Both the position numbers and the translations under genes were made by a program. Shown one piece after another: positions 12,588-16,718 of a DNA stretch of 64,000 bases (the first letter of the stretch is position 1; each line of letters opens with the position of its first letter). The notes below the pieces were generated by a model that was not told the DNA's origin, made no database searches, and saw only the letters and a program-made list of their open reading frames with translations. Source of the stretch: Escherichia coli 042 (GTDB lineage Bacteria; Pseudomonadota; Gammaproteobacteria; Enterobacterales; Enterobacteriaceae); NCBI RefSeq assembly GCF_000027125.1, contig NC_017626.1, one strand, 5' to 3'.

Positions 12588-15020
12588 TTACAGCATATGT
12601 TCAGTACGGGCGATGATATCGTCCTGAGCGTCTGGAGAGAGCGCGGTGAAGAAGGCGGAATAGCCCGCGACACGCACTACCAGATCGCGGTACTGATCCG
12701 GATGTTTTTTCGCTTCCAGCAGCGTTTCGCGGGAAACGATGTTGTACTGAATATGCCAACCTTTATGCACCTCGAAGAAGGTGCGCAGCAGGATCATCAG
12801 TTTCTGCTTGTCAGATTCGTTCTCCAGCGTTGCTGGATTCAGTTTCTGGTTGAGCAGCACGCCGCCGAGAATCGCTGCCGTAGGCAGTTTACCCACCGAG
12901 CCAATGACCGCAGTAGGGCCAAGATGATCAGTACCGGAAGCCGGGCTTGCGCCTTCTGCCAGCGGGGTATGCGCTTTACGCCCGTCCGGCGTTGCCATAG
13001 TTTGCGCGCCAAACGGTACGTTAGCGGAGATAGACGACGTACCCGCGTAATAATTGCCGCCAACCGGACCACGACCGTAGCGCGGGTTATGGTACTGTTT
13101 CAGTTCGTCGATATAGGTCTGATAAGCGCGAGCCAGCAGCGTATCGACGGTATCATCGTCGTTGCCGTACTTCGGCGCACCGTTAATCAGCCGCTGACGC
13201 AGTTGCTCATGAGTCAGGCCATCGAAGTCATCCGCCAGTGCGGCAGCCAGCTGTTGCTGACCAATCGCGCCCTGTTCAAATACCAGTTTCTTCACTGCCG
13301 CCAGGCTGTTGCCGAGGTTGGCAATGCCAACCTGCAGGCCAGAAACCCAGTCATATTTCGCGCCGCCTTGCTTGATACTTTTCGCTCGCTCAATACAGTC
13401 ATCCACCAGCGCCGAGCAGAGAATATCGTGTACGTTCTCTTCCAGCATGGTGTCGACGACATACTCAATTTCGATTGATTTGCGGGTGTAGTAACGGATT
13501 TGCGTATCCCACGCGTCCATCACTTCATCGAAGTTGTTGAAGTTACCTGCCGACAACGCTTTTTCTTGTGGCAGGAACACTTTGCCGCTGGTGGCATCAC
13601 GACCGCCTTCCAGCGCCGCCAGCATCACACGGGCGAAGTTGATAAAGCTCATGCCGGTACAGCGATAGCCCCATTTGCCACCGACGGCGGTTTCGATACA
13701 ACCAATCGCTGCATAGTCGTAAGCGTCCTGCGGTTCAATACCGAGTTTAATAAATTCCGGGATCACGATTTCGTCGTTGTTGAACGCTGGCATCCCGAAG
13801 CCGCAACGGATCACCTGTACGCAGGCGTCGAGGAAATCGTTACTCATTCCCGCATGGTAACGTACGCTGAGGTTAGGCTGAGTGGAACGCAGGCGACCGC
13901 AGGATTCAAGGATCGCGTAAGAGAGTGGATTCACCGCGTCCATCGGTTGACCATCAACCAGATTTTGCCCGCCAATGGTGACGTTCTGATACAGCGGACT
14001 TCCCGCAGAGGCTTTCGAGTGCGAGCCGGAGCGGATTTTGTTCACTTCCAGCAGTTTCAACCAGCAGCTATGCAGCATCTCGATGGCGTGTTCGCGATCC
14101 AGCGTCTGGTTGAGTTCAACGTCGCGACGATAATACGGGTACAGATACTGGTCCATACGACCAAAAGATACTGAGTGACCGTTAGATTCGATCTGCAAAA
14201 TCAACTGGATGAAGTAACACAGTTGCAGCGCCTGCCAGAAAGTCTGCGGCGGCTGGTGGGCGATAAGATCACAGTTTTCTGCCATCGCCAGCAGTTCATC
14301 GCGACGGCTTTCGCGGGTTTCGGTCGCGGCCATTTCACGCGTCAGGGCAGCGAAACGTTCAATGTGTTCACTGACTGCCACCAGCACGATATCAATCGCT
14401 TTCAGGAATTGCTCACCGTGTAAATCTTCCAGCACCGTCAGGTTGATGCGCGAGCGACGTTCCGCTACTTTCTCGCGCAGACCATCAAGCCCTTTTTCCA
14501 GCAGCAGCGGGAAATTGACCGCCAGGTGCGCATCGCCGGAGGTCATATTGCCTTCCGCTTTAATGATGCCGGTCGCCAGCAGACCTTTTTGCTCATCGGT
14601 AAACATGCCGTAGCAGCGATCCTGTACGGTCTGACCGCGCCACCACGGGCACACTTCATGCAGAACGCGTTTGTTCTCTTCGCTCACCGCAAAGCCAGCA
14701 CCGGGACGATCTGCCAGATCATCAATCTCTTTTTCGATCCAGGAGACGGTATATTCCGGGAAGATCGGCGCGGCGCGAACTTCGCTTGCCTGGTTGCCAA
14801 TGATCAACTCATCGTGCTTGATCCAGATAGTGCGATTCGCCAGATGATGCGCCAGTGCCAGCGCGCGACGTACCGGGATCGGCTTATCGAGATGTTGTTG
14901 ATACATCTCGGTATAGTGCTGCGCGCGCTCGGTACAGACTGGCGGTTTCACAATATGTACCAGCGCATTTTTGTGCGCTTTAATGCGGTCGCTGAGCGTG
15001 TCCAGTTTCAGTGTGGTCAT
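12588..15020 (-). CDS. ybiW: Glycyl-radical enzyme, pyruvate formate-lyase homologue YbiW (810 aa)
   Basis: C-terminal glycyl-radical motif ...RVAGYSAFF... and PFL-like size; K-12 position next to ybiY. Confidence 0.92.
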   Translation of the reverse strand: MTTLKLDTLSDRIKAHKNALVHIVKPPVCTERAQHYTEMYQQHLDKPIPVRRALALAHHLANRTIWIKHDELIIGNQASEVRAAPIFPEYTVSWIEKEIDDLADRPGAGFAVSEENKRVLHEVCPWWRGQTVQDRCYGMFTDEQKGLLATGIIKAEGNMTSGDAHLAVNFPLLLEKGLDGLREKVAERRSRINLTVLEDLHGEQFLKAIDIVLVAVSEHIERFAALTREMAATETRESRRDELLAMAENCDLIAHQPPQTFWQALQLCYFIQLILQIESNGHSVSFGRMDQYLYPYYRRDVELNQTLDREHAIEMLHSCWLKLLEVNKIRSGSHSKASAGSPLYQNVTIGGQNLVDGQPMDAVNPLSYAILESCGRLRSTQPNLSVRYHAGMSNDFLDACVQVIRCGFGMPAFNNDEIVIPEFIKLGIEPQDAYDYAAIGCIETAVGGKWGYRCTGMSFINFARVMLAALEGGRDATSGKVFLPQEKALSAGNFNNFDEVMDAWDTQIRYYTRKSIEIEYVVDTMLEENVHDILCSALVDDCIERAKSIKQGGAKYDWVSGLQVGIANLGNSLAAVKKLVFEQGAIGQQQLAAALADDFDGLTHEQLRQRLINGAPKYGNDDDTVDTLLARAYQTYIDELKQYHNPRYGRGPVGGNYYAGTSSISANVPFGAQTMATPDGRKAHTPLAEGASPASGTDHLGPTAVIGSVGKLPTAAILGGVLLNQKLNPATLENESDKQKLMILLRTFFEVHKGWHIQYNIVSRETLLEAKKHPDQYRDLVVRVAGYSAFFTALSPDAQDDIIARTEHML

Positions 15021-15025
15021 GGTTG

Positions 15026-15925
15026 TTATCCTCGTAAGGTCGCGGTTAACCCTTTCTGGCAGGCATACTGCTGGGCAAAGTCGAGCAGTTCTGGCGCATC
15101 AAGCGGTTTTTCCGGGGCGTCATAGGGCAGATTAAGTAAGTGATATTTGTTGATGCCCAGCGTGTGGTAGGGCAGGAAATGAATTTCGCTAACGTGCAGC
15201 TCGTCGGCGGCAAAATCGGTAATGGCTTTCACAGAGGTTTCGTCGGCATTAAAGCCCTGAATCAGTGGCACGCGGATAATGATTTTTTTGCCCGCTGCGG
15301 CGAGTTTTTTCAGGTTATCCAGCACTCTGGCGGCGTTACCGTCGGTCCACTGTTTAAACGGCGCGTCGGCAACGTGTTTTAAATCGGCAAGAAACAGATC
15401 GATATAGGGCAGAGAAGGGGCGATATATTTCCACGGCACATGCAGACAGGTTTCTACCGCAGTATGAATGCCGGCCTCGTGGCTGGCTTGCAGCAGCGCC
15501 GTCGCCATTTCCGGCTGCATAAAGGGTTCTCCGCCAGAAAGTGTTAAGCCGCCGCCGCTGCGATCGTAAAACGGTTTATCCCGCAAAACGGTCGCCATGA
15601 TCTCCTCAACGCTTTTCACTTCACCACACACGGTTAATGCCTGTGTCGGGCAGCAGTCGGTTAGCGCCGTAAAATGCTCCGGGGTTAACTTTTCTCGATG
15701 AATAAGCAAACCATTCAACGCACGCTCAATCACTTCCGGTGCGGTCCTAGCGCACAGCTCACAGCCTTCCAGACAGAGTCGTGGGTCATACAGCAGATCC
15801 TGCGTGCGGGCGCGGCTTTCCGGGTTCTGACACCAGCGGCAGCCCAGCGAACAGCCTTTAAGAAATACGACCGTGCGGATACCGGGGCCATCATGGGTCG
15901 AGTAGCGCTGAATATTGAAAATCAT
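15026..15925 (-). CDS. ybiY: Glycyl-radical enzyme activating enzyme (radical SAM) YbiY
   Basis: CxxxCxxC radical-SAM motif ([12 protein letters not shown]) plus extra Cys clusters; start placed at MIFNIQRYS, which has SD GAGAGG, rather than the upstream ATG at 15952, which has none. Confidence 0.88.
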
Positions 15926-16055
15926 AGTTGCCTCTCTGTTTCGTTCAAGCATTAAAATACTTTCGAATGAAAGTTAGATTGATGTGCGTCAACTGTTCAG
16001 AGAGTTTTCCCGTGATAGTCTACATTCAGACAAAAAGTGCATTTTGAGGATGGTT

Positions 16056-16718
16056 ATGGAACTGTATCTGGATACTTCAGACGTTGTTGCGGTGAAGGCG
16101 CTGTCACGTATGTTTCCGCTGGCGGGTGTGACCACTAACCCAAGCATTATCGCCGCGGGTAAAAAACCGCTGGAGGTTGTGCTTCCGGAACTTCATGAAG
16201 CGATGGGCGGTCAGGGGCGTCTGTTTGCCCAGGTAATGGCTACCACTGCTGAAGGGATGGTGAATGACGCACGTAAATTGCGTTCTATTATTGCGGATAT
16301 CGTGGTGAAAGTTCCGGTGACCGCCGAGGGGCTGGCAGCTATTAAGATGTTAAAAGCGGAAGGGATTCCGACGCTGGGAACCGCGGTATATGGCGCAGCA
16401 CAAGGGCTGCTGTCGGCGCTGGCAGGTGCGGAATATGTTGCGCCTTACGTTAATCGTATTGATGCTCAGGGCGGTAGCGGTATTCAGACTGTGACCGACT
16501 TACACCAGTTATTGAAAATGCATGCGCCGCAGGCGAAAGTGTTAGCCGCGAGTTTCAAAACCCCGCGTCAGGCGCTGGACTGCTTACTGGCAGGGTGTGA
16601 ATCAATTACTCTGCCGCTGGATGTGGCACAACAGATGATTAGCTATCCGGCGGTTGATGCCGCTGTGGCGAAGTTTGAGCAGGACTGGCAGGGAGCGTTT
16701 AGCAGAACGTCGATTTAA
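16056..16718 (+). CDS. fsaA: Fructose-6-phosphate aldolase 1 (220 aa)
   Basis: [37 protein letters not shown]... matches remembered FsaA; start trimmed from ORF 15984. Confidence 0.93.

Follow-up and report, generated by a model that had tools for sequence, protein, structure and literature searches.

In a 64,000-nt stretch of Escherichia coli 042 (contig NC_017626.1; hereafter the window), we examined the genes around ybiW, an 810-codon open reading frame (ORF) on the minus strand (12588-15020) whose 810-aa product is a glycyl-radical enzyme, described in the recent literature as a 1,5-anhydroglucitol-6-phosphate C-O lyase or 'dehydratase'. Directly upstream on the same strand lies ybiY (15026-15925), encoding the 299-aa radical S-adenosylmethionine (radical-SAM) activase of YbiW; its TAA stop stands 5 nt ahead of the ybiW ATG and is overlapped by the GAGGA Shine-Dalgarno sequence of ybiW, an arrangement that suggests translational coupling. 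Across a 130-bp intergenic region, the plus-strand gene fsaA (16056-16718) encodes the 220-aa fructose-6-phosphate aldolase 1, which scores 450 bits against the fructose-6-phosphate aldolase (FSA) subfamily model NF009296 (cut-off 306) with residues 1-220 of 220 covered. The fsaA start is ATG 16056, and GTG 15984 merely heads the open frame. An original prediction, made from the letters of the window, had described fsaA and the sugar phosphatase gene ybiV as convergent or divergent with ybiW-ybiY; this holds for fsaA, which is divergent on the plus strand, but not for ybiV, which lies on the same minus strand downstream of ybiW.

Our conclusion, held with high confidence, is that the locus comprises a ybiY-ybiW operon and a divergent fsaA that together form a characterized anaerobic module for the catabolism of 1,5-anhydroglucitol (1,5-AG). 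The substrate and structure of YbiW, its pathway partners and both regulators have already been published, and YbiW is no longer an orphan enzyme. Of 5426 complete E. coli genomes, 5425 contain the stretch by megablast, annotated as ybiV, ybiW, ybiY, fsa and moeB; the highest nucleotide identity to any of these 5426 genomes is 98.3% for the ybiV-moeB stretch (12000-17500) and 99.0% for the first 12 kb of the window (1-12000). The gene order is K-12-like. Directly after the ybiW stop, a stable GC-rich hairpin (12556-12580, minus strand; -22.5 kcal/mol, z -4.97) without a U-tract probably marks where the ybiYW transcript ends, or else stabilizes that transcript.

The ORF, its Pfam domains and its radical motif all bear out the earlier description of an 810-aa glycyl-radical enzyme resembling pyruvate formate-lyase (PFL) and carrying RVAGYSAFF. 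YbiW matches the PFL-like domain (PF02901, E 1e-208) and the Gly_radical domain (PF01228, E 2e-32), and its C-terminal part contains LVVRVAGYSAFFTAL, in which the radical glycine is G786 of the loop R783-V-A-G786-Y-S-A-F-F. We aligned YbiW with E. coli PflD and PflB, the numbering of the latter including the initiator Met, and used a HMMER alignment for the glycerol dehydratase (GDH) of C. butyricum (1r8w). G786 corresponds to G741 of PflD and G735 of PflB. The Cys loop of YbiW reads G440-C441-I442-E443, a lone Cys with Glu at +2, against G-C419-V-E421 in PflD, G-C433-V-E435 in GDH and C419-C420-V-S in PflB; C441 thus aligns with PflD C419, GDH C433 and PflB C420 (C419 in the literature). Judged by these residues, YbiW carries the signature of the 1,2-eliminating radical enzymes (eliminases), not the Cys-Cys pair of PflB.

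These comparisons bear directly on an older view, expressed in the name 'putative pyruvate formate lyase 3', that YbiW is no more than a paralogue of pyruvate (or 2-ketobutyrate) formate-lyase. Both enzymes have the PFL-like fold and a glycine-radical domain, YbiW rises in vivo together with PflB and TdcE in Shigella proteomics, and the K-12 RefSeq record still labels ybiW 'putative pyruvate formate lyase', which we regard as a stale annotation. Identity to PflB is nevertheless only 26%, and active-site alignment did not find the catalytic-residue identity to PflB that had been raised alongside the original prediction: G440-C441 stands opposite C419-C420, with Glu instead of Ser at +2, so that G-C-I-E faces C-C-V-S. 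YbiW also scores 162 bits against the PflB equivalog TIGR01255, far below the cut-off of 994, and the reaction summarized for it in a recent review (PMC12441222, see below) is a different one. We consider the formate-lyase reading effectively refuted and give it next to no weight.

Within the eliminase class, the family model for PFL2/glycerol dehydratase (TIGR01774) is matched at 1406.5 bits against a cut-off of 678, and none of the NCBIfam equivalogs for CutC, HypD, sulfopropanediol dehydratase and PflD is reached by YbiW, whose scores stay below the cut-offs for CutC (461 vs. 1050), HypD (529 vs. 1100), HpfG (517 vs. 1000) and NF007437 (578 vs. 1109). A second alternative arises here, namely that YbiW dehydrates a small diol (glycerol or 1,2-propanediol), as the C. 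butyricum enzyme does, and that its sugar-phosphate neighbors are coincidental. Glycerol dehydratase 1r8w is indeed the best PDB relative outside the YbiW entries (E 6e-163), and GDH H164, H281/S282, Y339 and C433/E435 are occupied by identical residues in YbiW (H165, H282/S283, Y344 and C441/E443). GDH D447, however, stands opposite YbiW G456, and GDH Y640 opposite S662, which suggests a differently lined pocket, and the failure to reach any equivalog model likewise speaks against a small-diol enzyme.

The published substrate and the gene context also bear on this alternative. YbiW of the window is identical to K-12 YbiW at 806 of 810 residues and has 100% identity with a cluster of proteins named as E. 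coli, and YbiY differs from its K-12 counterpart by seven substitutions. The PDB holds two structures entitled 'Probable dehydratase YbiW' (8id7 and 8yjn), one entitled 'Probable dehydratase PflD' (8yjo) and a 93%-identical homologue (6xs4). According to section 5.1 of the review PMC12441222, which cites Ma et al. (JACS 2024, 146:26187), 1,5-AG and 1,5-anhydromannitol are phosphorylated by a phosphotransferase system (PTS); the review further states, from the same 2024 paper, that YbiW converts 1,5-anhydroglucitol-6-phosphate (1,5-AG6P) to 1-deoxyfructose-6-phosphate and that PflD converts 1,5-anhydromannitol-6-phosphate (1,5-AM6P) to the same product. The reaction requires the glycyl radical, and the pathway enables E. 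coli to grow on 1,5-AG, a dietary sugar analogue (PMC12441222). The earlier statement that no YbiW substrate is firmly established is accordingly out of date by that review's account, in which 1,5-AG6P is the published assignment, and the guess of an anaerobic sugar or polyol route, drawn from the clustering with sugar-phosphate enzymes, proved correct. A Reg-Seq preprint in a version dated May 2026 still treats ybiYW as lacking functional annotation, overlooking the 2024 paper.

Gene context points the same way. E. coli K-12 carries two parallel modules, one in which fsaA is divergent from ybiY-ybiW and one in which gldA-fsaB-ptsA is divergent from frwC-frwB-pflD-pflC-frwD. For comparison across genera we used five loci, from Yokenella, Kosakonia, Mixta, Yersinia and Brenneria, which with E. 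coli make six genera. YbiW orthologues are 87-93% identical across Enterobacterales, and fsaA is divergent from ybiY in four of the five other genera (Yokenella, Mixta, Yersinia and Brenneria), Kosakonia being the exception. The two parallel modules and this cross-genus pairing support a functional link between YbiW and the aldolase. Conservation of the aldolase neighbor, its duplication beside a PTS in the pflD/fsaB cluster and the published substrate AG6P (as given in PMC12441222) all tell against coincidental sugar-phosphate neighbors, and we regard a small-diol dehydratase as highly improbable.

Taking YbiW as the 1,5-AG6P enzyme, a pathway can be proposed in which YbiY, with S-adenosylmethionine and a [4Fe-4S] cluster, would install the radical on G786, from which it would move to C441. 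The C441 thiyl radical would then take the C2 hydrogen of 1,5-AG6P while E443 would deprotonate the C2 hydroxyl; the resulting ketyl radical would cleave the C1-O5 bond with loss of the ring oxygen, and return of a hydrogen atom from C441 would yield the 1-deoxy-2-ketose 1-deoxyfructose-6-phosphate. Such a scheme would account for the formation of one and the same product from the C2 epimers AG6P and AM6P. FsaA is proposed to split 1-deoxyfructose-6-phosphate into glyceraldehyde-3-phosphate and hydroxyacetone. FSA is known to use hydroxyacetone as an aldol donor, making 1-deoxysugars, and in the 2024 work FsaA or FsaB reportedly cleaves the product to glyceraldehyde-3-phosphate and hydroxyacetone, with GldA reducing hydroxyacetone to 1,2-propanediol. 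At the level of transcription, FNR at a class II site would turn on ybiYW anaerobically, and the DeoR-type regulator YciT would keep it off, acting at a palindrome that separates the FNR box from the -10 element.

The presence of a radical-SAM activase beside ybiW was likewise upheld: YbiY scores 368.6 bits against TIGR02494 (cut-off 174) and carries the CX3CX2C motif as C25-x3-C29-x2-C32, with further Cys at 51, 55, 58, 91, 92 and 100 (299-aa numbering). The original prediction had accurately described two candidate starts, ATG 15952 without a Shine-Dalgarno sequence and ATG 15925 with GAGAGG, and this ambiguity resolves to the latter. ATG 15925 is preceded by GAGAGG (15931-15936, minus strand) at a 5-nt spacer, and the other genera have a purine-rich block at the same place. 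RefSeq gives 299 aa both for K-12 (NP_415345.2) and for the strain that matches best, the orthologues in all five other genera are called at the same length, and the TIGR02494 profile puts its position 1 at residue 2 of the 299-aa product. A 308-aa activase initiated at ATG 15952 is conceivable in that the frame is open from there and older annotations carried the long form. Upstream of this ATG, in the context gtattttaATG, no Shine-Dalgarno sequence was found; in the six-genus alignment each of the other five genera has ATC here, and the interval between the two ATGs contains indels whose lengths are not divisible by three. The nine extra residues would fall outside the family profile, the ATG itself is embedded in the conserved -10-like hexamer that follows the FNR box bound in vivo, and RefSeq has already settled on 299 aa. 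The long form is very unlikely, and we place the start of YbiY translation at ATG 15925, as RefSeq does.

A related observation concerns pflC of K-12, whose annotated start (local 7259-8137) overlaps pflD by 35 nt and adds ~22 residues before the IFNIQRYS N-terminus common to PflC and YbiY. This may be another over-extended activase start.

We then considered the ybiY promoter. The FNR box TTGATGTGCGTCAA (15979-15992, plus strand) matches TTGAT-N4-ATCAA at nine of ten positions, and in five of the six genera its half-sites are fixed as TTGAy-N4-rTCAA while the spacer varies; the Kosakonia copy is degenerate (TCGAT...ATCAC). The case for this site was built on such conservation and on chromatin immunoprecipitation (ChIP) data, not on the match count. 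The supplement of Myers et al. (2013, PMC3688515) lists the same 14-mer at an FNR ChIP peak for ybiY/fsaA; a ybiY-FNR link was not found in the main texts searched, the evidence sitting in the supplementary tables of that paper.

Downstream of the box, a -10-like hexamer TTTAAT (15951-15956, minus strand) is kept in five of the six genera, with TCAAAT in Mixta, and takes in the first two bases (A and T) of the rejected ATG 15952; its role as a -10 element is a candidate one. From the center of the FNR box to the first base of this hexamer downstream is 29.5 bp, a spacing that implies class II (-41.5) geometry and a predicted transcription start near 15944, downstream of ATG 15952. The -41.5 value derives from the -10-like hexamer and carries the same candidate status. 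A generic sigma-70 scan gave no excess over shuffled sequence, and its lone hit near ybiY (15948-15921) runs across the start codon and was not used. Between the FNR box and the hexamer lies a 16-bp palindrome, ACTTTCATTCGAAAGT (15959-15974, minus strand), centered 19 bp from the center of the FNR box, which we consider a candidate operator for YciT.

The Reg-Seq preprint (10.1101/2025.05.13.653802) reports that the ybiY promoter, ybiYp, is active only anaerobically, that it binds YciT near -5 and that an unnamed activator leaves a footprint near -20. The supplements of the preprint hold no ybiY promoter coordinates, so comparison of the footprints with our map is indirect. If its predicted start site lies ~17 bp upstream of ours, the unnamed anaerobic activator fits FNR. 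Two published datasets are thereby linked, the anaerobic activator footprint of the preprint fitting the FNR box that ChIP had mapped in 2013.

Assignment of the palindrome to YciT draws on several observations. Upstream of ybiY the 16-mer is near-invariant in six genera. A second copy, GCTTTCATTCGAAATA (12511-12526, minus strand), lies upstream of ybiV and a third, TCTTTCATTCGGAAGT (11488-11503, plus strand), upstream of ybiU; these carry 2-3 mismatches to the ybiY 16-mer, and the 64 kb contain three matches in total against 0.77 expected. The motif stands upstream of ybiY, ybiV and ybiU alike in E. coli (both the window and K-12), Yokenella and Kosakonia; upstream of ybiY and ybiU in Mixta, where the ybiV gene is absent; and upstream of ybiY in Yersinia and Brenneria, where the ybiV and ybiU genes are both absent. 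Deletion of yciT changes the expression of ybiY, ybiV and fsaA, and YciT ChIP-exo peaks lie at all three (Gao et al. 2021, PMC8464067); the preprint reports these data as upregulation of ybiY and ybiW in the deletion strain (10.1101/2025.05.13.653802). Finally, a DeoR-family gene adjoins the module in Mixta (local 1910-2674), Yersinia (8847-9602) and Brenneria (3308-4054), with 57-60% full-length identity to E. coli YciT; this placement in three genera supports the view that YciT is dedicated to regulating the module. In E. coli itself, yciT is encoded ~480 kb away, beside osmB.

Several points weigh against our overall reading of the locus. The substrate assignment rests on the section of the citing review noted above (PMC12441222) together with the names of PDB entries, and the YbiW allele of the window carries four conservative substitutions relative to K-12 (K184E, T227A, R474H and E769D, the window having K184, T227, R474 and E769). 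The radical mechanism is carried over from the analogous enzymes glycerol dehydratase, CutC and HypD, and the FsaA and GldA steps rest on what the 2024 work reportedly found and on the known use of hydroxyacetone by FSA. On the regulatory side, an FNR-like match is not in itself significant in the window (five found against 2.8 expected), the transcription start near 15944 is a prediction from geometry, and the -5 and -20 footprints of the preprint match our map only if its predicted start lies ~17 bp further upstream. These points notwithstanding, a 1,5-AG module is the very probable identity of the locus.

Two flanking genes share the operator motif. The ybiV gene (11627-12442, minus strand) encodes a 271-aa Cof-type HAD sugar phosphatase and has its own promoter region, in which the operator copy is accompanied by a conserved CRP-like site, TGTGC-N6-TCACA, suggesting that ybiV has its own cAMP-CRP-dependent promoter. 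The CRP-like site (12490-12505) lies just downstream of the ybiV operator, and across Escherichia, Yokenella and Kosakonia its half-sites are invariant while the spacer varies. We considered and rejected membership of ybiV in the ybiYW operon, given the stable hairpin after ybiW and the conserved operator and CRP-like site of ybiV itself; ybiV is probably a separate transcription unit in the same regulon. In Kosakonia the ybiW-ybiV spacer extends to ~430 bp (local 8434-8860) and contains repeated GC-rich elements resembling repetitive extragenic palindromic (REP) sequences, with operator and CRP-like site kept.

The ybiU gene (10216-11475, minus strand) encodes a 419-aa DUF1479/Gig2-like protein, of which two structures are available (2dbi and 2csg), and is both co-regulated and syntenic with the module. 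The gene seems to belong to the anhydroglucitol regulon as one of its conserved members. The operator-like palindrome of ybiU lies at local positions 9490-9505 in Yokenella, 9799-9814 in Kosakonia and 4125-4140 in Mixta, and in Mixta ybiU sits between the yciT-like regulator gene and fsaA. The ybiU ORF of the window is 419 aa as against 421 aa in K-12 and strain Z1323HEC0462, its stop falling 6 nt earlier. A cluster of genes for a LacI regulator, a major facilitator superfamily (MFS) transporter and a GH31 glycosidase adjoins ybiU in some E. coli (NZ_CP148331.1, 1-4244), in Yokenella and in Kosakonia (local 10783-14433 in both); it is missing from K-12 and from the window, where ybiT adjoins ybiU directly.

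In the literature searched, which did not include Ma et al. 2024 itself, no published role for YbiU and no pathway-specific role for YbiV was found, and the conserved co-regulation of ybiU and ybiV is the sole feature here without an existing explanation. The ybiY-like palindrome precedes these genes in every genus that has them, and they travel with the module; ybiU and ybiV may be working parts of the anhydroglucitol system, a reading that we rate as unlikely, if worth raising. Speculatively, YbiV and YbiU might handle 1,5-AG6P once oxygen inactivates YbiW: YbiV could dephosphorylate a dead-end or toxic sugar phosphate, by analogy with the repair carried out by human G6PC3, and YbiU could be an oxygen-dependent enzyme acting on 1,5-AG6P. 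Both suggestions are conjecture.

Set against known systems, ybiW of the window is the same gene as that of K-12 YbiW (b0823; 8yjn, 8id7), with its activase YbiY (b0824), and the two loci have in common the neighbors ybiU, ybiV, ybiY, fsaA and moeB, the FNR box and the operator motifs. PflD and PflC form a paralogous module, with a G-C-V-E Cys loop, an activase, an Fsa-type aldolase nearby and the same product, 1-deoxyfructose-6-phosphate. PflD nevertheless shows only 39% identity to YbiW and acts on the C2 epimer 1,5-anhydromannitol-6-phosphate, and pocket positions differ, YbiW H282, Y344 and S662 standing opposite S, G and Y of PflD; moreover, the pflD cluster encodes frw PTS genes and gldA, whereas the ybiW cluster is without a transporter gene.

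Beyond these sugar-phosphate enzymes, the C. butyricum GDH (1r8w) and the wider eliminase class (CutC, HypD, propanediol dehydratase and isethionate sulfite-lyase) resemble YbiW in the G-C-x-E and RVAGYSA loops, in several pocket residues, in the Cys-rich cluster motifs of the activase and in the logic of radical 1,2-elimination. The leaving group sets them apart: the eliminases lose water, trimethylamine or sulfite, whereas in YbiW it is the intramolecular ring ether oxygen, so that the ring opens, and the YbiW substrate is a sugar phosphate. PflB and PflA are alike in fold, in the glycine-radical domain and in activation by a radical-SAM enzyme, yet the Cys-Cys pair occurs only in PflB and the Glu at +2 only in YbiW, and YbiY carries a Cys-rich insert of ~50 residues that PflA lacks.

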